A stretch of 64,000 nucleotides of DNA from Octopus vulgaris (lineage: Eukaryota). Shown one piece after another: positions 1,526 through 63,599 of this stretch. The DNA lies in the NCBI GenBank assembly GCA_951406725.2, contig OX597828.1, positions 32,364,001-32,428,000 on the forward strand, written 5' to 3'. Position 1 is the stretch's first letter. Each line of letters starts with the position of its first letter. The notes beneath the pieces were generated by a model that was not told the origin of the DNA, searched no databases, and saw only the letters and a list, made by a program, of their open reading frames with translations. A program made the translations under genes and the position numbers.

Positions 1526-4256
1526 AAACCATTTCTAGCGACAAACTACATAGCATTGTAAGCCTCTGAAAAAGAACACATTTCATGTTATCATATATAC
1601 ATTACAAAAATGTTAAATAAAACGTTGTTGTCCCCATGAGATTCATTTAAGTATAAAATATATTAATATTAGACATTTTCAAATTATTGTCAGTGAAGTT
1701 AATTAATATATTTAATTGAGTTATATATGAATGCTTAAGTTTAAAATAGCTTTTGTAATACTAAGTTTTATTGTCAGACGTGTTCTGGTTGATGTGAACT
1801 TACAAAAATTTACTTCAGTCATTCATAATTATTGCAAACTCGTCAGGATTGTACAAAGTGCGAGACTTCGGACTTGTAAAGTAAATTGTTTAGAGCTAGT
1901 TTTAAGGTTACAATCTGGTTACATTGTCATTCTGTCCTTCAAACTGGATGGATTAAATACCAGTAATTTCCTATGGTCACATTAAATTTGTTACAGTTAT
2001 CCGATCGTTAAATATATTTGTGCACAGATCAAAAATATCTATAATTCTTGTTGCAAATTTGGGTTATGCTTCGAAGAGGATATAAATTTCTCTGTCATTT
2101 GGAAGTCGCTAATTTTACTATTTTCTCTTCATCTAAAACGCAACCGGGAACGGTATCAGAAAAACACATCATAATATGATTTTATAATTGCTCATTTAAA
2201 ATGTTGATTCTTTTTTTTTTACAATAAAATTAATAGCAGTGCAATTCCAAACACTTCCTCACAATTTAATTATTTTCACTATTGCAAGAGAGTTATCGAG
2301 TATATTAATCCAACTCGGTCTTTATACTATTCCTTCAAGGGACATTTTACAATGCTCAGATGATTAACAAAACCAATAGATAAATCAAAGAAAATATAAA
2401 AAAGGATTATATAGGTTTTATAGATATACTAGTATAAATCTGATATTTATTAATTTCTTTCTTTACTTTGTTCCACGCGCCTTAATAACTACCAAACCAA
2501 TCAATATTTACATATGTTTTTTTTTATAAATAGGCGACAGAGAGATAAAAAGATTTTTTTTTCTTCACTGCAAATTTGTTGCAATGATAATACGTGAAAA
2601 TATTGTGTAGTGCATCGACTTGTGAGGAATCTGGTTGATAACAGCGGAGAATTCAAGTCGATTCTTTCTTTAGAATGAAAGGAAAAAAAAACTCTTCGAA
2701 ACTGAAATCAATAAAAATCCAATGTTTATTCTAACAAGATTTTTCATAATTTACGCACCATAAGATCTGAAATCTCTTGCACGAGTGATATGGTTGCGAA
2801 GCTTTAGTGCTTCAAACTGTTTATGACATGTCTGAAGTTTGCATGTGTGCATATGCGTGTATCTGTGTGTGTGTTTGTGTGTTTGTCTGTGTATGTCTAT
2901 GTACACATGCACGCGCGTGTGTGTATTAATACAAGCCAACGTTCCCCAGCATTTTCTTCGTACACTATCAGGAAGTATTGCATTCATGTGCTTCCATGTA
3001 TTTTAGTCATGGCGCCAAGAATCCGTCATGTCTAAGCTTGCGTATTCTCCTTATCTTTTTGTATGTATGTAAGGTATGGTATGTACGCATGTACATATAG
3101 GTCTGCTTGCCAGAAATGCGTCTAGCAAAACCGAAGGAATACATACGTATTTTTAGATTCCATGCATATACACTATATTTATAGCATATTAAAAAGTATA
3201 ATGTCTACTGGTGTGTATGTTGCCGAGTCACTGTTATTACTACGCGGGTGATTATAAGGTTGTTGTATGAGGCTACATATTTCATGTATAGCCTTGAGTC
3301 TTTCATGCTTACAATCCAGTATACACTAAAGCGGATGTGGTGTCTCCGAGTAAACTAAGAGCTGACTTTCGTTTGCGAGTATTTCTTTTGAATTTTCCTG
3401 TTTGCGCTTTGTATGTAAAATGTGTATGCGTATATATTCGCAGGTATGAGCTTGGTTGTGGGTGTGTATGTCAATGTGGGTATGTAGGCATGTCAGCTAA
3501 AAAGGATTCTGAATGTATTCATTATATATAATAAAGAGGAAAAATGCCTCCTGATAAACTTATTCTAGAACATATCACTAATAACACAGTAAAATAGTTT
3601 GAAATTAAAATAAAAATCGGAAGCCGATTCATGAATTTCAATTTTATTTCGAAACGATCAGCCTCTGTACAATTAGTTGCTGTTATTATTCTCATAAAAC
3701 CGCCTTCAGCAATGAATAGACCAGCGATTGTTCGGATTACACCTCTTTTCATTTTTTTATGTATTTATTTATATGTTTATTTTTGACAGTGAGAGAAAGG
3801 CAGCAGATTGTGTTGTTAGGCAGATTTTATATTCAATTCCATATGCTAAATGCGATCTTTTTTATAAATTCTAACAGATATCCTTAGAGTAATACGATTT
3901 ATATTAATGCAACCATTCGATATTTCACACACTTTCTTTTTTTTTTTGTTTTACATTTGTATATTTTAAATCACAATCTGCGAACAACGGCGCCGTTCGT
4001 TGCAGGTTTATAATGGACTAATCACTGGTTCAAGGCATCTATTGATTGCGTGAATGGCATGAAACAACGGAGATTTTTGCTGCCTTGTTCTCTGCAGAAC
4101 ATACATTAACGTGGAAACTCTTTCGAAATCCAACGGTTTAAAGTTTTACTCGCTGTTGTTATTATTTGCCTTTACTGATCAGCATAAGTTATACGCGTAC
4201 ACGCACACATCAGAACAAATACACATATGACTACACATATAGAATAGAAAGAAGGA

Positions 4257-5711: not shown

Positions 5712-8560
5712 AATGTTGGTATAGAAATTTATGTAGGTTCCTCCTATGCCCATGTATTAGTATCAAGTGAAAATGTTTGGCGTCGTAAGTTAAAGCTGAC
5801 ACAGTTGACTGAACAAGTCCGTACTATCAATTCTCTGAATTTTTCTGTCAAGTGTTCGTATAGAATGAACACATGGTTAAGTTTCTAAACTTCTGTGCGT
5901 TTCCCACTGCATTCATGTGTTAGTTTCACATGGCAGTATATTTTGCGCCTGAAAAGAAGGCCGACACAGTTGAGTGACCATGTTTAGTTATACTCAAAGC
6001 AATCCATATTTAATCTATCTAATGGGAAAGTGTGGACTGGAGTCGATTTCATGTAGTGCAATGGTTAACGTTGCGGCTGTTAGCGGTGTTGCTTCCTCAT
6101 GATAAGTGGTAGAATGAATTTCGTGTGTGAATATTTATTTGTATATGAACTCTGTTAAATTTTTCAAGTCTGGGTTTGTACTTTTGTATGAAACTATTTC
6201 CTTCGTGTATCTACGCTTCATCTGTAGTATTCGCTAAACATAGAAAGTGTGAGAAGACCTAGAATTTAACAGACTTATTTTTGCATATATGTCTATGTGA
6301 CCACTCAGTGGAATCTGTCTAGTATTGGTGTATCGGATTTATTGTCGGTGAATGGTTAGTCTATTTCTTAGAGTAAGCTTTGTATGATCTGTGTAATCTT
6401 CATTACATATTTGACATTTCATAGTGTATATTACATACCTTGAAGAACATGTAAAGTGATATTTGACGGAAAAAGTGTGTCCTGATTTGAATTTGCATGT
6501 TGTATCTTTAATAATATTGATGCAGCTCCCAAAATTGGGGCGGCCACATTTTTTGACTGTTCGTGTAGGAATTGTTGAAGATAATATAGGATTTATGAGG
6601 AATTTTTTGAAGGAATTTAATTGTCTTTTGCTTTTGATTATTTTGTGTATTTCAAATGTTTGTTTCATTCTTCGGTCTTGTTTAAGTAGTGGGAAGTTCT
6701 GATGGATAATATTATAAACCGCTGTGCTTCTTAGGTTTCGCGTTGGAATAAAAGTTAGATAATTGAGTGTACCTGGAGCGTTTTTCGTAGTTCTTCGATA
6801 TTTATTGCTTTGGCATATATTTCGTTGCCTATTAGCATTAATGGGTATTGTCTTTTAAGTAGTACTTGCTTCAGTCCCTGAGGTATTTTATTGCGGGTTT
6901 CAGGGTTTGAAACAATTATGCAGATTCTTCTTGCTAGATTAAAGTGGATATCATCCTTCGTGTGTTTGGCATGGCATGAGGAGAATAGTAAGTAGTGTTT
7001 AGAATTTGTTTGTAGTGAACATCTGTTTCAATGATTTTATCTCTTTTGATGATTATTATATCCGGGAAAATAATTGAGTTTTACTGTATTCCATGGTAAA
7101 GTTAATATCCTTGTTTCTGAGGATTAGATTTTTTGAAATCAGTAAGTAGTTCAAATGTCTACGTCCAAAGGATTAGGCAGTCATCTAAGTAACGTTTCGG
7201 TTTTCTAGTTGATATCTGTGGAAGTTCAAGACACTTATGAAATTGGATTGTTTATATATCTTGACCTCCCTGTATGCCATGACTACATTGGCGTACGTCG
7301 GAACATCTATTGTCGCCATTGTAATCTCAGATATTTATGTGTAAATATTGCCATCGAAGTAAAAAAAAGTTGTATTTGATGATCAACTTTAATCTTTCAG
7401 TGATGAAACATTTTTTCAATTCAGTCCAGACTTTCATGAGGGAATTACTTAAGCCAGAATCATATTGTTTCTAGTCCATATTTATGCGAAATTGTGGTAT
7501 GTAGGTTTACAACATCAAAAGATACAATAATAGTATCATTGTTTATGGATTTTGGGAGGTGATTTAACACGTCCAAGTCAGACCTTACAAGGCTTGGTAT
7601 GTATTTTAACATGCATTTCAGTAATATATCTAAAAAGTTGTTCAGCCTGTGTGTTTCACAGTTACGGTCTGCTACGCTTGGTCTGAATTTAAGGACGGTG
7701 GGATATTCTATGCTTATGCAAGTTGAAGTTGTTTTTTACATGCATTCCTAATAGTTTGATTCTTATGGATTTTCTGGAGAACGTACAATTAGCGGGTCTT
7801 GCAATCAAAGTGAGATAATTAGTCAAGTAGTCATATTCTTTGTTTGTTAAAACGTTTTGTTGTCTGCGGATGAGTGTGTTTAGTCATGTGTTTATTCCTT
7901 GTCTTTAATTTTTGGTAATTGCTTAACTTTTCGTAGTGCGTCATACCCTTTATGAATAGGTTCTCGGTAGAGTACTTTTTTTAAAAATGAGATTCATAAT
8001 TGGGGAACTAAAGTGCATTTCTTTCCCACCGTTGAAGTGGATGTTATTTCTCGTGTTCACATTTTCCTTTCTATAGTTTAATAATATTTTCTCGGCCTTC
8101 GGATACTTTTGAAATTTTTGCTTGCATTTCTGCATCAATCGTTTAAAATTTTACGCCGTTGGAATTTACGCTTAGCTGAAATAGCTGGGTTTCCATCCTG
8201 AATTTCATGAGAACCATCTTTTCTCTAAGTTTTTGTTGTTGTTCTGGTTCTTAGGACGCAAACATTGTCATTTGATACTAACACATTGACGTAGCGCGGA
8301 ACCTACAGAAATTTCTAAGACCTGTCATGTGACTACCCTCTACCAATCAAATACTATTGAAAACATATACTAATTTAAGTCAGGAGCTCCCTATAAAAAC
8401 AGGTCAAGCTTCAAACACTAGGCAAAAAAAAGACAGCTACGATGTAAGAAAAGGATTTCTATTTGATTTTTTTGAAAATCAGTGTAAAATGTGAAACCGG
8501 TTAGAGCTTCAAATATATCAATAAATGATATTTCAACGATTCTCATTGCATTTATGACTC
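5712..8560 (-). mobile_element. Penelope-like retroelement (Neptune-like), degenerate RT + GIY-YIG, with inverted 5' pseudo-LTR
   Basis: Minus strand shows RT 'KRYLDDCLILW' (~7170-7200), 'PTYANVVMAY', a Cys linker 'KKCGRPNFGSC' and GIY-YIG 'FTCSSRYVIYTMKCQICNEDY..RNRLTIHRQ' (6339-6668). 5722-5789 is an inverted copy of 8250-8317. Confidence 0.85.
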
Positions 8561-12708: not shown

Positions 12709-14884
12709 TGTTTCTTTATTAGCCACACAGGGCTGCACACAGATAGAACAAATTACAAGGTAGAGCTTTTCTTTTGAAGGGTTAAAAAAAAAAAAAGGAA
12801 GGGGGGGAGTTTCGATCAAAAGGGATCGTAAAAGGAGAGAAAGAGGACAAAAAAGGTTAAAAAAAAAGGGGAAGAGGAAAAAAATTGATCAATAGGGATC
12901 GTTATCACAGAAATGTCAATATGAAGTGTAAAGGGGAGGACAGGTGAGGTTTACCCGTGGAAAGAAAAGCCTACGGAAAAGATCACGGTAACCTCGGTCA
13001 ATGAAGTCACATTTTATATTTCTTTTTTTTTTTTTTTTTTGCAAATAAGCAACTCTCTGTTTTCGATTTCTGGGTTCATAGGACTATGCTCAAGGTGGCT
13101 TCGTCATTCATACGTGCCATTCTTGCTACATTCACCCATCTTTTTAAAACATTCGCTAGACAAAACTTGCCTCTCTACTCTCACTTTCCTTTTCAAGTGG
13201 TACTTGAAGAAGTTGATGAGAGATTGACCAGAGAGGAAAGTGTTTGTCTCCAATCCTTTCAGACGCGTCCACCAGATACATTCTTTCGCCATAGCCACAA
13301 GGATGATGGAAATAGCTCTTCCTTCCCGTTTGAAGGAAGGAGGCGTGACAATATTGACGATAGACTCAGCTGATAAACCGACTCGTCCCACACGTGACAG
13401 CAGTTGTTCGACATAAGCCCACAGGTCGGAAATTGTTGGACACTGAACGAGTGCGTGCAGAACGGTTTCGTCGCTCTGACCGCATCTCGGGCAGGTCGGC
13501 CCCGTGTTTCTCGAGCCGTGTCTGTAGAGCTTATCCCGAACGGGTAGCGCTTCTCGGTAGCACCGCCAGGCCAGGGATCTCTGGAAGTTGTCCATGGGCC
13601 CTGGCCCGAAAGTCGTCCTGAACAGGCGGGTCATGTACTCCTCGTCGACGTCCAGGTTCGCCCCGAGCTCGTCGTCGTACCTCCCCTCCACTAAACCCCT
13701 ATAGAATGCTTTGGTTGTGTTGAAGTCACTTAAGGTCGACCCAGGACGGCAGAGTTGCTTGAGAGCAACGCGACACTCGCGGTGCCATTCGCCCTTCCTC
13801 GGCCTCTTTTTGATCCACGACTGCAGTTCGGTCATGGAGACGAGCTGCGGGAAAGCGTGCCTCACAAACGGCGACCACACCTGTTCACCGTCGTCTACAT
13901 AGAGCCAGAGATGTCGCAGTCTCAGCGCATGTCTGCGCATCATCAACCACGGCATGCCCAGCCCTCCTTTTAACGGGTGTTGACAGCAAATGGATCGCCT
14001 GACCATCGGGACGCATCCTTTCCACAAGAAGCGAAAGAGGATGCGTTGTAGTTTGGTGATGGTAGGGTCGGGACAAGGTACGACGGTCAGGCGGTAGTAG
14101 ATGACGGACGCGATGTACGTGTTCGTCACCTCCGCTCGACCTTTTAGGGACAGTTTCCTCTCGGCCCATTGCCGGGCGAGAGTGACCACCCTACTCGTTA
14201 TCTCGTTCCAGTTCTTCTCCACTTGGAGGTCCGGACCAAACCAGACCCCGAGCAACTCAACCGGGCCGTCGGTCCAGCGTCCCACGACGGAGGCGCCGGT
14301 GGACGGCATGGGCTTGCTTCTCCAGGTGCCTAGTCGCAAGCCCACTGACTTTTCCCTGTTGATTTTCGCTCCTGTCACCGCTTCGTAGTTTTTCAGTGTC
14401 TCGCCGACCAGCTCGATGTGCTCGTGGCTAGACACTATGACGGTAACGTCGTCCGCGTATGCAGACACGCTCGTCCCGCATCCCAATTCTCGCGGGATGC
14501 CCCTTAGAGTCGCCAGCTTCCGCAGTAGTGGCTGAAGAGTCAATACGTATAGAAGCGCCGAGAGGGGCATCCCTGACGGACCGAACGTGCAATGTCGAAA
14601 GGTCTCGATAGATGTCCATTTACGCGAATTACCGAACGGATGCCTCTCTACAAGGCAGCTATCCAGCCGCGGAAGACGGGACCGAAACCAGCCGCTCTCA
14701 GGACTGCCTCCAAGTATCGATGGTCTACCCTATCAAAGGCTTTCGATTGATCCAAGTTGATCAGGGCCCCACCCATGCCAGGTTCGTTAACTACCCTGTC
14801 TATGATGTAGCGCATCAGATGGAGGTTGTCATGGATGGTCCGGTCTGGCACGGCGCATTTTTGCGCCTTGTCGACCAGTTTCTC

Positions 14885-27658: not shown

Positions 27659-28660
27659 GCTTATACATGGAATATTAGAAAAAAACACCTTTTATCGATT
27701 CAAAATGATCAATCAAATTCCACCATCTTGAAAATTGCATATCATAGGAAAGTTAAAATTAAAATGACAATTAAAAAGTAAAGATTAAGTAAATTACAAA
27801 AATAATATAATGTATATAACAGGTAATATATATATATACACACATATATATACATATACACACATATACTAAATGTTCTACTATATTACATTGTAAATCA
27901 AAAGATATGTCCTTCAATGTATGAATGAGTAAAATTTCAGTCATTTAATTTGGGGGAGAACTTAGCTATGAAATATTTTTCCATATTCCTCCTGAAAGAG
28001 GTGTCGTTCTTCGGACATTTGTAGAAGAGAAAGATCTTAAACTTTCCTTCTCCACACGTAGCTAGGTGTGTACTTCGTGGTATCTTGCTTAGTTCTTCCT
28101 GCCGAACATGTTGTCGGTGAATCCTGGCTCGCTGGCACAAAGAATTACCAGTTTCACCTGGTAATCCTCCTTGTACGTGGGGCAGGTTATGCAGTATATA
28201 ACGTTCTGCGTCTTGCAGTTCATATCTGCATTTACCTTAAATACGTAACCACTTTTAAATCTCATCTCTCTGTTTCCCTCTATGTATTTGTAGGTGGGGT
28301 TGCTGCAGATCCCACATCTACCATCTCCGCACTCTTTTGCAAAGAATTCCGTTTTAGTTTCGCTCTTGTTAGGTGTTTCTTTAGGTTTTTGCCCTGTCGT
28401 CTACTGTTTTTTATGGTATATTTGTTTAATATGTTTTTCATTTTGGGGCTTTGAAAGGCTATTGGCAGGTTTAAATGTATGGTTGGGAACATGTTGGTAA
28501 CTCCAAGGTTGTGCGTGTTTATAAAAGGGATAATGTTTTCTTTGTTTTTTGTTTTAGGTGTCCTGAGTTGTGCGATGTCTAGTTCCAATGCTCTTGTGAT
28601 TCCATTTTCTATTAGTTTAAGGGGGGGTTGCTCTAGTCGTATTTGTGAATCAGTTACTAT
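26600..28660 (-). mobile_element. 5'-truncated Neptune-like Penelope element (thumb/linker + GIY-YIG + long 3' UTR with hammerhead relic)
   Basis: 'IPFINTHN...SRRQGKNLKKHLTRAK', frameshifted 'NVIYCITCP', 'QRARIHRQH...EKYFIAKFSPKLN' (27937-28650). Hammerhead-like motif at 26682-26737. Confidence 0.85.
27305..27917. repeat. ~300-bp tandem duplication in the PLE 3' UTR
   Basis: catgcttatacatg...aaagatgtgtccttca (27319-27602) recurs at 27656-27916 with a few substitutions. Confidence 0.9.
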
Positions 28661-28683
28661 GCTATATATATATATATATATAT

Positions 28684-28822
28684 ACGACGGGCTTCTTTCA
28701 GTTTCCGTGTTCCAAATCCACTCATAAGTTTTTGGTCGGCCCAAGGCTGTTGTAGAAGACACTTGCCCAAGTTGCCACGCGGTTGGTAAACAAGATACTT
28801 ACCACACAGCCATCCTGCGCCT
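28684..28822 (-). mobile_element. SINE family A, 5' half
   Basis: Reverse complement of 5290-5447. Confidence 0.8.
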
Positions 28823-32641: not shown

Positions 32642-33646
32642 CAGAAAATTCGGAAAGAGTTGGATGAATCTAATGGTGACTACGAAGGTACGGCACCTCG
32701 GAAAACTTACTCTGATCGTTCTGGTAAGAAAATAAATCACAAATTTGCTGATGAGATCCAGGCATTGATTTACAACGATCCTTTTAAGTCAATCAGGACC
32801 TTCGCTAGGGGCATAGGAGTGTCTGAGTATCTTATCACACAGGTCGTGCATGAAAACATTCTGTATTCCGCATAGAACTTGAGAATGGGAACATTTTTAT
32901 CGCAGCCCATCAGCGATAAGAGGAAAACCGGGCTACGAAGCTTTTGAACAAACTCAGTTATCCCTCCAACCGAACATGCTTTCTTTTTCTCAGACAGGAA
33001 ACATTTCTGCCGTGTCCATGAAACGTATATGGAGAGTAATAAAAATCAAAGAAACAGTCAACATCATGGTGTTTGGAGTGAAGACTAGTGATGTTGAAGT
33101 TATACCTCCATCGAGTTTACTACACGACCTCAGATTCAACATGGAGGGCTGCATCAAGTACCTGGAGGAAGTAGTGTTGCCCTGGGGGAATAGGGTGGCT
33201 GCTGGAAGAACCTATGTCTGACAACAGGACTCTGTACCATGCCATATAAGCAAGAGAGCTCAGTCATGGCTGTCAGACAATTTCTGCGACCACATCACCA
33301 CTAAAATCTGGCCAACTAGCTAGCCAGACTGCAATCACCTTGAATATTATGTGCGAGGCCCAGTTGAGCGAGAGACCAAGAAAACTCCTTCAGGTGAACT
33401 GAAGGCAACGATTGTGGCAGCATTCACCAACTTAAAGAAGGAGACTCTCCAGAAATGTTGCAGGTTATTCCGTAGTCATCCGGAGGCCGTGGTTGAAGCC
33501 AATGGCGATTTTATTGAATAAATTTACTCTGTTATATACCAAGATAGTTTAATATAATTGTGGTAAATATATCTGTTAAAACGAGATGTGATTGTTATGT
33601 TCATATTTACGTAATTTAGACGAAAATTTATTGACCGCACCCTATG
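32642..33646 (+). mobile_element. Tc1/mariner-superfamily (maT/DD37D-like) transposon, 5'-truncated
   Basis: 'NIMVFGV', 'YLEEVVLPW..AAGRTYV*QQDSVPCH', 'IWPTS*PDCNHLEYYV'; likely right TIR gacgaaaatttattgaccgcacccta. Confidence 0.85.
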
Positions 33647-33724: not shown

Positions 33725-33812
33725 TATATATAATAATTAATTTACTGTATAACTTACCTGTAAATTTTTAAACATATTGACTACTTGATAAAAATCATTC
33801 ACGTGATTTTAT

Positions 33813-33847
<35 letters not shown>

Positions 33848-33916
33848 GGAGTAAACACATAAATGTGAAACAAGGTGGAAAAAAGAGTACTCAAATACCA
33901 GTGGTAGAGTAATATG

Positions 33917-34904
33917 CTTTATTTTAAGCAGCAGAAAATTCAACAAAATCTGTTACTCTGAGTTTCTCGTTGCCGTTCATCAGACAGTTTTTGCTAGAAT
34001 GGAACATATATATTAATTCAATCTATACTCTTACAAACGCTACACCTTTAAAAAGAAATGGACTTGTTTGATTGGCCCTTTAGAAAAAACGGTCAATCTT
34101 CGAGCGATAAACAAAAAGGTCAAAAATATATGTATATATATATAAAAAACTTATAAAAATTATAAAATCCGAGGAAAAAACCGAGGAAAAAACCTATTGC
34201 CGTTAATGAAGACAGTACAAATTAATGCATAGAAATTAAACCTGTTATAAATACTGCAATACATATTTATATTAAAATCCACATATATATATCAACATAC
34301 ACAAAAGGATGCGCGTAAACGCCATACATACATATACAGACGTATGAATATGAATCTAAATTATACACATAAAAGCATGTGTACATATATTCACGCAAAC
34401 CGTCTCGCACGCAAGCTAAAATTCATCTATGTAGCAATTCTCATATACTGAGCAAGGAGGGGGAACGAAAGAAAGGGAAAGAGAGAAAAAAGAAACGAAG
34501 GAGGGGTGGGGAAAACTTGTAGCGATATTATTGACATCTATAGAGGCCAGTATACATACACAAGTTTGAATTGATACATATACATACCGTCGTGTGTATG
34601 CGTGCTTAAGCACAAGCATACTTTCACTTACACATACACAGATACGCATGCTTACAAATATATATGCTTTGCTATATACAAACTTATATAAACATTCTAA
34701 ATTTGACAACATTGCTTTTTTTAAAAAAAACATTGCTTTTAAAAAATGGGTGCATTAATAAAAATATATACGAAAGACATAAAATAAAATATAACATCCT
34801 ATTTTGGGTCATTTATAAATAATCAAGGTAATATAAATAATCAAGGTAATCTTATGCAATACAATAACATGAAAACAAAGTTTGTAGGTTTTTCCTAATA
34901 TATA
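33917..34904 (-). repeat. Left arm of the long inverted repeat (PLE 3' UTR/pLTR)
   Basis: Matches 35711-36700; the only difference I noticed is a 2-bp indel (ttttatgt vs ttttatatgt). Confidence 0.97.
33945..33992 (-). ncRNA. Minimal type I hammerhead ribozyme (left arm)
   Basis: Exact reverse complement of 36625-36672. Confidence 0.8.
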
Positions 34905-35022
34905 CGTTTATAAACGTCGTTATCAAGTGCATATAAGTTCCTTGTCTTGTCAGAATTAACGAAGATCTTATTCGAGTCGTTAATCTCCTTAATTTTTTCT
35001 CTCATGTTTTTTTGCAATTGGT
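34905..35022 (-). pseudogene. Antisense fragment of the PLE RT N-terminal region (DKT motif)
   Basis: Minus strand reads NQLQKNMREKIKEINDSNKIFVNSDKTRNLYALDNDVYK, matching the PLE DKG/DKT pre-RT motif. Confidence 0.8.
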
Positions 35023-35029
35023 TGAGGCA

Positions 35030-35621
35030 GGGTCATAAATTCTACAGAATATTTAATAGAAGAACCCTGAAGGTTAGCTATTCTTGTTGCAGAAATTTCG
35101 CCTCTTACATTAGCCAACATAATAGGAAGCTAATTGAGATTAGACATGGTGCCGAGCCCATTAAGAAATGTAATTTCAAAAACGAAAGCTCCTGTCCGTT
35201 AGAAGGGAAATGTCTAGTGAAAGGAGTAGTTTATAGAGCCAAGGTGCAAGTGGAAGGCTCATCGGAATACAAGACATACACAGGGGCTTCAGAAAATTCA
35301 TTTAAAACAAGATTTTATTCTCATAAGAATTCTTTTAAATACCCAGAGAACAGAAAGAAAACCAGCCTAGCAAAATATGTCTGGGAACTAAAAGAAAAGG
35401 AAGCCCCACCTTTCAACGTGACATGGAGCATTCTGGACAGGGCGGCACCATACAGGCATGGAGCTTACAAATATAATTTCAAGTGCAGGCTCTGCTTATT
35501 AGAAAAAATGCACATATTATTCAAAGACAATAATTCTTTGAATCAAAGAAGTGAATTAATGAACTTATGTAGGCACACGGCTAAATTTAAAATGTCGAAT
35601 ATAAATATACCATATGGATAG
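35030..35621 (+). CDS. Open GIY-YIG endonuclease domain of a Naiad-like PLE (5'-truncated)
   Basis: 'GHKFYRIFNRRTLKVSYSC', 'CNFKNESSCPLEGKC', 'VVY..TYTG..FKTRFYSH', 'CRLCLLEK', 'NQRSELMNLCRH'; no stop codons. Confidence 0.9.
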
Positions 35622-35710
35622 AGTATATATTTTGTATTTTGATTTTTTGATTTTGATTTTGACTCTTGAGCGCTACGACGGACCTATAGCAAAGTCTTTT
35701 TGTTTCTACA

Positions 35711-36700
35711 TATATATTAGGAAAAACCTACAAACTTTGTTTTCATGTTATTGTATTGCATAAGATTACCTTGATTATTTATATTACCTTGATTATTTAT
35801 AAATGACCCAAAATAGGATGTTATATTTTATTTTATATGTCTTTCGTATATATTTTTATTAATGCACCCATTTTTTAAAAGCAATGTTTTTTTTAAAAAA
35901 AGCAATGTTGTCAAATTTAGAATGTTTATATAAGTTTGTATATAGCAAAGCATATATATTTGTAAGCATGCGTATCTGTGTATGTGTAAGTGAAAGTATG
36001 CTTGTGCTTAAGCACGCATACACACGACGGTATGTATATGTATCAATTCAAACTTGTGTATGTATACTGGCCTCTATAGATGTCAATAATATCGCTACAA
36101 GTTTTCCCCACCCCTCCTTCGTTTCTTTTTTCTCTCTTTCCCTTTCTTTCGTTCCCCCTCCTTGCTCAGTATATGAGAATTGCTACATAGATGAATTTTA
36201 GCTTGCGTGCGAGACGGTTTGCGTGAATATATGTACACATGCTTTTATGTGTATAATTTAGATTCATATTCATACGTCTGTATATGTATGTATGGCGTTT
36301 ACGCGCATCCTTTTGTGTATGTTGATATATATATGTGGATTTTAATATAAATATGTATTGCAGTATTTATAACAGGTTTAATTTCTATGCATTAATTTGT
36401 ACTGTCTTCATTAACGGCAATAGGTTTTTTCCTCGGTTTTTTCCTCGGATTTTATAATTTTTATAAGTTTTTTATATATATATACATATATTTTTGACCT
36501 TTTTGTTTATCGCTCGAAGATTGACCGTTTTTTCTAAAGGGCCAATCAAACAAGTCCATTTCTTTTTAAAGGTGTAGCGTTTGTAAGAGTATAGATTGAA
36601 TTAATATATATGTTCCATTCTAGCAAAAACTGTCTGATGAACGGCAACGAGAAACTCAGAGTAACAGATTTTGTTGAATTTTCTGCTGCTTAAAATAAAG
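35711..36700 (+). repeat. Right arm of the long inverted repeat (PLE 3' UTR, ends at AATAAAG)
   Basis: Reverse complement of 33917-34904. Confidence 0.97.
36625..36672 (+). ncRNA. Minimal type I hammerhead ribozyme (right arm)
   Basis: aaaaactgt-CTGATGA-a.cg.gcaa.cg.a-GAAA-ctc.a.gag-TA^acagatttt; predicted cut after GUA at 36663. Confidence 0.8.
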
Positions 36701-36852
36701 TATATATATATATATACATATATGTTATGCAAGTGTGTGTGTATATTTTTTCTCTCACCACTTGACAGTTCTTCAAATGATAAAGCCATAATAATTATCA
36801 ACCATTGAAAATATAAAATATTACGGTGATTTCATCGACTAAAAAACTTCAA

Positions 36853-37128: not shown

Positions 37129-38230
37129 ATACGTTTCTTTAGTGGCCACACAGGGCTGCACACAGATGGGGCAAGTTACAAGGTAGAGCTTTTCTTTTTG
37201 GGGAGAAAAAAAAGGTGGCGTAGGTTTTCGATCAATAGGGATCGTGTATCACAGTGTCATGATGTATGGTGTAAAGGGGAAAGCAAGTAAGGTTTATCCG
37301 TGGGAAGAAAAGCCTACGAAAAAGACCACTATAACCTTGGTCAGTATTGTTATATGTTACCACATTTGTTTGCAAGTGGGTAACCCTCTGTTTTCAATTT
37401 CTGGGTTTATAGGATTGTGCTTCGTCATTCATACGTGCCATCCTTGCTACATTCACCCATCTTTTTTTTAAACGTTCGCTAGACAAAACTTGCCTCTCTA
37501 CTCTTACTTTCCTTTTCAAGTGGTACTTGAAGAAGTTGATGAGAGGTTGACCAGAGAGGAAAGTGTTTGTCTCCAATCCTTTCAGACGCGTCCACCAGAT
37601 ACATTCTTTCGCCATAGCCACAAGGATGATGAAAATAGCTCTTCCTTTCCGTTTGAAGGAAGGAGGCGTGACAATATTGACGATAGACTCAGCTGATAAA
37701 CCGACTCGTCCCACACGTGACAGCAGTTGTTCGACATAAGCCCACAGGTCGGATATTGTTGGACACTGCACCAGTGCGTGCAGAACGGTTTCGTCGCTCT
37801 GACCGCATCTTGGGCAGGTCGGCCACGTGTTTCTCGAACCGTGTCTGTAGAGATTATCCCGAACGGGTAGCGCTTCTCGGTAGCACCACCAGGCTGGAAG
37901 TTGTCCATGGGCCCTGGCCCGAAAGTCGTCCCGAACAGGCGGGTCATGTATTCCTCATCGACGTCTAGGTTCGCCCTGAGCTCGTCGTCGTACCTCCCCT
38001 CCATTTATCCCCTATAGAATGCTTTGGGTGTGATGGAGTCACTCAAGGTTGACCCAGGACGGCAGAGTTACTTGAGAGCAATGCGACACTCGCGGTGCCA
38101 TTCGCCCTTCCTCGGCCTCTTTTTGATCCACGATTGCAGTTCGGTCATGGAGATGAGCTGCGGGAAAGTGTGCCTCACAAACGGCGACCACACCTGTTCA
38201 CCGTCGTCTACGAAGAGCCTGAGATGTCGC

Positions 38231-38231
<1 letters not shown>
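37129..38231 (-). mobile_element. Tx1/L1-clade LINE, copy 2 (more truncated, frameshifted)
   Basis: Closely similar to 12709-13920; lacks the 10-bp ccagggatct present in copy 1; GATA repeats on both sides (36853-37125 and 38299-38392). Confidence 0.95.
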
Positions 38232-38297
<66 letters not shown>

Positions 38298-38299
38298 GG

Positions 38300-38383
<84 letters not shown>

Positions 38384-39849
38384 GGATGGATAGACAGACA
38401 GGCAGGTAGATAGATGATGATATGCGATATAGTAAAAGTCCACGTAAGTCCTAAAATGCCGTAACTTTTGAATTAAGTGTATTCTATCCTTTCATCTTTA
38501 CATTATGGATAAGATATATTTCGGACATTTACCAAGTTCAAATGACTATATTAGTAACTAAGGCATTGGGAACAAAATGGTCAGAAACCTTCGTTCCAGT
38601 TTTACATTTTGACATCATTTATAGGGGAGTAATGAAGTAATTACCAGATGACCATTGGGGTCAATGTAATCGTATAACCCCTCTCCTAAAATGCTAGGAT
38701 TTGTGCTTATAGAAGAGAGGACTTTTAATGAAGTCATTAAAGCCCTATGTTTGCTGTAACTGCTATATCACGATTACTGTCCACAACATTGGATTTATAT
38801 TTCAGAGTATTGTTACAAACATGTGCAGATATATGTGGCAGGGAAATCAATGAACGTTTTACCATTGAAATTTGCTTTTACGTGGTTTAACTACTGCTCT
38901 GTGAAGAACGGAAATTGAGAAGTTGAGAAAATAATGGAAAATACATTTAGTTGTTCGTTAAATGTCAGCAGGAAATTTCTAATGACTACAGGTACAAATA
39001 AATTTCTGAGGCAGTTGACTGCAAATGTTATTTCAATTATGCGATTTCGAAATGTAACTAAATAAATGAGAAAATTAGCAAATAATCAGAAATTATTGTT
39101 GTTAAAATATGATCAGCTTGTCGGTGAATTCATATCTGTTTTTATTGCAAGACTCTGAAGTGGAAATAAGGTCAGTAAATTCAATATTGCATTTAAAATA
39201 TCAGTAATTATCAAATATAATTCTTATAAAATACGAGTTAGGTATTTAAAATAGTTAGAATGACATTTTCCTATGACACTCTCTTCCTTATAATTTATGC
39301 GTCTCTATAGTAATTTAAATGAATTAACGTTGATCATTAAATTGCATAGTTTTTAAATTACTTAGATGATAGTGTTACAGATGAATTTAAATATTGGTAT
39401 TCTTAAATCAAGCGTATGTTAAGGTTCCGATGTGAAGGTTGTCAATTATTGTTAACCTCGTATCAAATGATCATTTTATGTATTGTAAATATTTCCTAGG
39501 AAAACTGATGGTTCCCTGTTACTTTCTTGCATCAGTTGTGCGTGTCATGACCAACTGAGATACCGATTCATTAACACAGAAAGGTGTGGCTTATTATTAT
39601 ACGGCAGTTGACTATTAAAGTCGTCCGCATTTAGACCTATATCATTGCTCTTTGCTAAAAGGGTCAACTTTCGACGCACTTTTAGTTTTGTCTACCTTAT
39701 TTCCCTCATTTCTGAAACTATGATACCAGAAACATGTTTACGATACCAAACATCTTCATTGAAACCGAAATCAAAGAATTGCGAAGTGAAGTTATTATCA
39801 ACTTGACTATACATGCACTAAATATAATATAGTTATAATTGAATGCAGC

Positions 39850-63049: not shown

Positions 63050-63520
63050 GGCAACCGATAGAATAAGCGCTAGGTTTACAAAGAATAAGTCCTGAGGTCC
63101 ACTTGTTCGACTACAGAATATACATATATATATATATATGCAGTTTCTTCGCCAAGAATCTCCTACTACAACATCGAGCAGACCAAAGCCTTGAGTGGAT
63201 TTGGTAGACGGAAAAGGAAAGAAGCCCGTCTAATGTATGTATATATGCATTTGTGTATATGTGTTTGTTCTCCTACCAACATTTGACAACCGGTGGTGGT
63301 GTGTTTACGATACCGTAACCTAGCGGTTCGACAAAATGGACGGATAGAATAAGTATTACTCTTACAAAGAATAAGTCCTGGGATAGATTTGTTCGACTAA
63401 TGGTGGTGCTCCATCTTGGCCGCAGTCAAACAACTGAAACAAGTAAATGAATAAAAGAATATACATATAAGTCGGTACTCCAACATGGCCGCAATCAAAC
63501 GAGTGAAACAAGTAAAATAA
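63050..63520 (+). mobile_element. SINE family A fragments with duplicated tail
   Basis: gaccaaagccttgagtggatttggtagacggaaa...gaataagtcctg...ggccgcagtcaaac (tail present twice). Confidence 0.7.
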
Positions 63521-63599
63521 TATATATATATATATATTTATATATATAAACTAAATCACAAAAGAAACGTCACGATTACTAAGTAGACACCGGTATATT

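Follow-up and report, generated by a model that had tools for sequence, protein, structure and literature searches.

The inverted-repeat insertion at positions 33846–36700 of the 64-kb window, by which we mean the whole stretch of 64,000 nucleotides that was analysed, is best read as two truncated copies of a young autonomous Hydra-type Penelope-like element (PLE), lying head-to-head in a (TA)n microsatellite and likely produced in a single event in which both cut strands acted as primers. We put the probability of this reading at roughly 85%. Lacking its RT, the insert cannot move by itself as a unit, and its inverted arms are no terminal inverted repeats but a by-product that arises anew with every insertion. 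The part of this work most worth keeping is a paired-start rule observed across the family; the cassette and Naiad readings of the original prediction both fail.

The near-identical inverted arms that had been predicted are indeed there, at 33917–34904 (988 nt) and 35711–36700 (990 nt), and so is the (TA)n, which is present to the left and to the right of the insert. No substitution was found inside the arms: over an alignment of 996 columns they differ by one 2-nt indel and two mismatches (33916 and 34905), both lying just beyond the true arms. On the parent unit described below, the insert maps as the tail followed by 3353 down to about 2361–2364 and 521 down to 402 on the minus strand, then by about 1675–1678 up to 3353 on the plus strand, at 98–99% identity. 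From left to right, its features are as follows.

33816..33845, no strand: (TA)15 target microsatellite, left flank, read from the sequence
33846..33916, minus: 71–72-nt tail, on the left arm only; unit positions 1–72, which follow the upstream pseudo-LTR in full copies
33888..33911, minus: small hairpin, predicted start-site signal, lying 5 nt past the unit end on the RNA (z of -1.7 and -1.8 for the two look-alike hairpins)
33917..34904, minus: left arm, which is the inverted copy's 3′ UTR (unit about 2364–3353)
33950..33987, minus: left-hand instance of the putative hammerhead-like motif, measured from one side of helix I to the other, by motif match
34905..35024, minus: 120-nt piece of the N-terminal coding region including the DKT motif (unit 402–521); 1.84 kb of the unit is skipped between it and the arm
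35025..35621, plus: last 198 codons of the element ORF, which encode the linker and the GIY-YIG endonuclease; the RT core is lost through 5′ truncation
35622..35710, plus: start of the 3′ UTR, right copy only, by mapping onto the parent unit
35711..36700, plus: right arm, 3′ UTR reaching the unit end, without the tail, by mapping onto the parent unit
36630..36667, plus: right-hand counterpart of the putative hammerhead-like motif; cleavage is predicted after 36663, which leaves 37 nt to the unit end
36701..36716, no strand: (TA)n target microsatellite, right flank

The region between the arms had been described as a spacer of ~800 bp holding a stop-free, RT-less GIY-YIG domain. The open frame, the fold and the absence of the RT core motif YRDD from the insert all stand, but the 806-nt spacer consists of two pieces in opposite orientation. 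Its stop-free frame (34914–35621, 235 aa) is element protein at 35025–35621 only (198 aa), the first 37 codons being the antisense of part of the element's own N-terminal region. The in-frame ATG at 35004, which would yield 205 aa, is taken as chance, since long frames cross junctions in other loci too (L044, L049 and L052). There is no exact microhomology at either of the two window junctions.

Elsewhere in the window, a 541-aa LINE-type frame with Pfam matches to RVT_1 and zf-RVT lies at 13104–14729 (minus); this LINE family is represented again at 37394–38472 (minus), by a broken copy that a TA/ATAG microsatellite splits. The frames at 6339–6854 and 28280–28798 (both minus), neither of which had a match in Pfam, look by eye like what is left of a linker and endonuclease from other Penelope-like clades, and those at 454–1081 and 33324–33521 (both plus) may, again by eye, be mariner/Tc1 transposase fragments, the first of them giving only weak HTH matches below the cut-off. 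A 69-nt unit repeated 1.9 times at 63405–63537 may be the terminal part of a short interspersed repeat. Among the window ORFs of at least 130 aa, none was evidently a host exon.

The parent of the insert is a young autonomous Penelope-like family with many intact ORFs. A natural copy (L059) gives a unit of 3,353 nt with a 138-nt leader, a single 711-aa ORF and a 1,079-nt 3′ UTR; the protein has its RT first and a GIY-YIG endonuclease at its C-terminus, with YRDD at residue 344 and the endonuclease motifs at 581–697. The full ORF is kept in 12 of the 20 copies that carry the start codon. Many places in the genome match the right part of the window spacer at 99–100% identity (scoring covered 40 of 1,326 candidates). 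Of 63 protein matches scored in the genome, 61 lack stops, and the 30 whose loci were retrieved belong without exception to the window's family. Homologues at E<=1e-30 numbered 1,062 among 7,996 scored candidates, the best 120 being 43–58% identical, and Pfam returned no match to the full 711-aa ORF. Most full-length copies have in front of them a partial tandem unit, or pseudo-LTR, whose length varies (L033, L034, L055, L056, L059, L111, L121 and most of L122–L151), which fits a tandem or circular template. One contig from X7, a run guessed to be RNA, spans the RT into the endonuclease at a depth of 8.6 and is at most a weak hint that the family is transcribed. A 663-aa frame of another PLE type, with an ADKGG motif, was also seen about 1.2 kb from a family copy (L063:6512–8503, plus).

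As for the clade, the Naiad affinity proposed earlier could not be upheld, since the parent has RWK, DKT and a C-terminal endonuclease with CxxC and CxH, which is the Hydra signature: RWK is at residue 37, DKT (changed from DKG) at 113, and CxxC and CxH stand either side of a conserved E and N. Naiads have an N-terminal endonuclease, DKA and CCHH, and are without a canonical hammerhead (PMC8557442). A Naiad element is thus ruled out by the C-terminal endonuclease of full copies, the DKT, the missing CCHH and the presence of a hammerhead core. From these motifs and a by-eye comparison with the published supplement, rather than from a tree, the parent would appear to be a Hydra-type PLE. Outer flanks are TA-rich at 133 of 145 recognisable family ends.

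The endonuclease domain had no match in Pfam or in a sequence search of the PDB, and its identity is read from a predicted structure. The model, built from a 37-sequence alignment (pLDDT 80.5), indicates a GIY-YIG fold: in a structure comparison of the prediction, I-TevI came first (Z 9.5, rmsd 2.3 over 89 residues) and was followed by T4 EndoII, the UvrC GIY-YIG domain and PD-T4-3, while Foldseek placed UvrC at the top with a non-significant E of 0.77. Residues C667, C670, E673, N686, C695 and H697 are invariant in 120/120 homologues, no Cys occurs between VVY and YTG (i.e., CCHH is absent), and the window endonuclease keeps all invariant residues except one. The linker motif had been given as CxC-x5-CP-x4-C; the window in fact reads C-x-F-x5-CP-x4-C. 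This second linker Cys (residue 564 in L059:3804–5936) is kept in 119/120 homologues; within the family it is Phe in 64/89 copies, that of the window included, and Cys in 24/89, and young copies are found among both variants. It seems that the second Cys is dispensable for spreading or that the Phe copies moved in trans.

A hammerhead near the outer end of each arm had also been predicted, and the core CUGAUGA-N10-GAAA is found at 36634 (plus) and 33983 (minus). The motif has helix I, the core and a palindromic helix III, with a helix II of only 2 bp closed by A.A, and it recurs identically in 146 places among the loci scanned. No hammerhead family was among the 11 Rfam matches at E<=1 and the fold of the region has a z of -0.13; the motif is a weak one. 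In vitro cleavage by monomeric PLE hammerheads is poor (PMC4209133), and the palindromic helix III could pair between two hammerhead copies. Since the two motifs lie on opposite strands, one transcript would carry one sense copy, which in a fold-back transcript would pair with its complement. The predicted cut, 37 nt before the unit end, would remove both of the start sites discussed below, so the template would be uncut RNA.

The family was surveyed in two sets of loci. A 24-mer from the arm has 612 exact matches in the genome, and all 75 loci behind the first 100 of these (contigs C1 and C2) form the systematic sample; a hand-picked set of 16 loci came from the scored spacer matches. The census left out short low-complexity matches (unit 3095–3150), on which the class given to L105 depends. 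Head-to-head junctions are present in 48/75 systematic and 14/16 hand-picked loci, and the junction pairs of the 56 two-ended inverted loci, including the window, are all different. A whole endonuclease without YRDD occurs in 13 of the 55 other two-ended loci, a forward skip of more than 100 nt in 7 of the 62 other inverted loci, and both arms reach about 1 kb or more in 24 of the 75 systematic loci. Each striking feature of the window insertion therefore recurs independently across the family. In three loci (L039, L041 and L045) the junctions are complex: short additional pieces, alternating in orientation, separate the arms. Inverted 5′-truncated partners, often with a tail at one end only, are already published for PLEs (PMC8557442). 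Among them, the Hydra element Penelope-13_HM has a 5′-truncated inverted copy (nt 1–966) with a hammerhead on each strand (PMC8557442 supplement), and in Adineta vaga an incomplete derivative with an internal deletion is flanked by inverted pLTRs (Arkhipova et al. 2013, PMC3846280).

The ends of the copies follow a strict rule. Two end points are used and both are fixed: the unit end, and the tail end that lies about 72 nt beyond it. In every one of the 55 two-ended inverted loci a single arm carries the tail (42/42 systematic and 13/13 hand-picked). Three further inverted loci seen whole (3/3) show the same arrangement, and 7 of the 62 inverted loci say nothing on the rule, an end being ragged or unseen. 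Single copies lack the tail in 21 of 26 cases with a recognisable end, and the second arm of L086 and of L087 consists of nothing but the tail. In the literature covered, the one-sided tail was found only as a qualitative statement.

Both ends also lie just before look-alike hairpins, the unit end by 5 nt and the tail end by 6 nt, the tail-end hairpin being present only in full copies and not in the window. The two are of the same build, with a 5-bp stem, a UUU bulge and a short upper stem, and two pairs have changed together; they are modest singly, at the z values listed above, and are seen in one family. They would mark the predicted start sites, and together with the one-sided tails they suggest paired priming on one RNA. 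In vitro, the protein of PAc, a Poseidon element of Anolis, cuts and extends both strands of AT-rich DNA (Frangieh et al. 2024, PMC11167929); two internal start sites bound the tail, uncut RNA is the template and a dimer is predicted. Against the paired model, the PAc start sites were alike on both strands and no pairing of them was shown. From the fixed ends, the 55/55 tail/no-tail loci, the tail-only arms and the PAc data, we infer that each strand supplied a primer of its own and that each primer used a different one of the two start sites, in the simplest case on a single RNA. The stronger proposition, that every two-armed insertion arises from an enzyme pair priming two strands at two fixed RNA sites, each marked by its own hairpin copy, we hold to be slightly favoured by the evidence.

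The relationship between the arms bears on whether a single RNA was used. Within a locus, the arms differ by a median of 1 per 628 columns versus 6 to other loci (37 loci), and the linker codon agrees between segments in 18/19 loci versus 0.59 expected (P 0.0006). The partner arm is closer than any other copy in 11 of 37 loci, tied in 10 and farther in 16; since it is often not the nearest copy, a single RNA molecule, a single donor subfamily and gene conversion are indistinguishable here. In 7/55 loci the stop points of the two arms are no more than 10 nt apart, versus 0.42 expected by permutation, and several of these loci sit at native palindromes, for which reason we rejected them as proof of one RNA 5′ end. 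A second enzyme trailing the first finds no support either, as tail arms are not shorter than tail-less ones (32/56, P 0.75).

Under the preferred reading, the element endonuclease would cut both strands within (TA)n. One 3′ end would prime at the unit end and copy about 1.68 kb, giving the right half; the other would prime on the same uncut RNA some 72 nt downstream, at the tail end, and copy 1.06 kb. The left-half cDNA would then jump 1.84 kb, unless this stretch was lost later, and copy 120 nt more, after which the two cDNA ends would be joined and filled in. The original prediction of a very recent insertion made by template switching is in this respect upheld for a recent PLE insertion in (TA)n with an inverted partner and an internal jump or later deletion. 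The window insertion is most likely private.

The best-surviving alternative is that one cDNA or antisense RNA folds back and primes itself, that the endonuclease trims one end to leave the tail on one arm, and that the 1.84-kb gap arose afterwards, when part of the palindrome was deleted. Self-priming has been proposed from palindromes at inverted junctions and resolution by endonuclease tail-cutting has been suggested (PMC3846280, PMC8557442), internal deletions have been described in Adineta Penelopes (PMC3846280), and the excess of near-same stops reported above, several at native palindromes, would agree with it. However, palindromic stops equally fit two cDNAs pairing with each other, and the arms stop more than 50 nt apart in 46/55 loci. 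Folding back from a tail-primed cDNA also predicts that single copies should be tailed, which 21 of 26 are not, and the tail-only second arms need a second primer. We therefore regard this alternative as rather unlikely.

An assembly or library artefact seems very improbable, even though long inverted repeats trouble assemblies (PMC8557442) and the window junctions are known from the assembly. A chimera would not give a one-sided tail in 55/55 loci, age-graded arm divergence (up to 7 differences in 628 columns) or different unique flanks, and short-read contigs from two runs support five other arm-to-endonuclease joints among the 12 listed (depth 32–49, short-side anchors of 20–29 letters). 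In the Logan contigs of 5 runs, no listed contig bridges either window junction, the source animal being perhaps absent from these runs. The coverage comprised X1, X2, X5 and X11 on 33740–35700 and X1, X2, X11 and X7 on 34860–35070; loose contig ends at the window junctions continue into normal element, and X1 is without cover at 34908–34947. Finally, the multicopy mobile unit of the original prediction, in which the whole 2.85 kb would be a new non-autonomous, TIR-like cassette moving as such and supplying free endonuclease, has clean ends, identical arms, a nearly complete set of invariant endonuclease residues and the 205-aa frame in its favour, but is hardly credible given that 80-nt queries across either junction matched fully only in the window (among the 40 of 846 and 40 of 577 candidates scored), that 56/56 junction pairs are distinct, that the ends are unequal with a tail on one side, unlike TIRs, and that open frames also run over junctions in the three loci named above.

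The silencing locus and ADAR substrate suggested in the original prediction are unsupported. As a source of hairpin RNA the window locus is not special, because two arms of about 1 kb or longer are likewise present in 24 of the 75 systematic loci. By extrapolation from 24 such pairs per 100 of the 612 matches, the genome would contain about 150 almost perfect inverted repeats of this family whose arms are at least 1 kb long, all of them potential hairpin-RNA and instability sites. We found no editing imprint in the form of an A>G excess: A>G and T>C account for 9 each of the 87 private variants carried by one arm, and for 6 each of the 41 carried by both. The window locus itself is ordinary insertion debris of the published kind and the family matters more, since its strict one-tail rule links the two in vitro start sites of PAc to long-known, unexplained inverted insertions. 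If the paired-start proposition is true, the one-sided PLE tail would be an obligatory product of the mechanism, not an optional one, and the family, with its dozens of intact ORFs, 72-nt spacing and two mutable hairpins, would suit a direct in vitro test of PLE integration.

In comparison with known systems, PAc starts within its ORF whereas the octopus family starts in the 5′ leader, and one site per strand per insertion is not reported in the available portion of the PAc paper (PMC11167929). The Penelopes of Adineta vaga share with the family the inverted pLTRs, the tail on one of them and the palindromes at some junctions, but they belong to another clade, their pLTRs are about 200 bp long, and they have target site duplications (TSDs) of 8–10 bp, while for the window insert no TSD is readable inside the (TA)n (PMC3846280). 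Naiads have in common with it the (TA)n bias, the inverted 5′-truncated partners and the tail at one end (PMC8557442).

The closest likeness is to the Hydra clade (Craig et al. 2021, PMC8557442), with which the family shares RWK, DKT, a C-terminal GIY-YIG without CCHH but with CxxC and CxH, and the (TA)n target; a putative hammerhead-like motif lies near its 3′ end, where Hydra elements carry a hammerhead. It differs from what the same source gives for this clade in several respects: the unit is 3.35 kb long with a 1.08-kb 3′ UTR, where Hydra elements are generally below 3 kb; the tail is ~72 nt instead of the usual 30–40; and the Hydra linker reads CxC-x5-C, where the second Cys is Phe in most family copies (64/89). 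Several of the listed Hydra hammerheads are also mismatched in helix II, but their stems are longer, and the 2 bp found here is below every listed motif. Hydra-1_Obim was judged by eye, from its other protein start and other hammerhead and not from an identity figure, to be a different family. The octopus elements are a new Hydra-type family in a known insertion shape.
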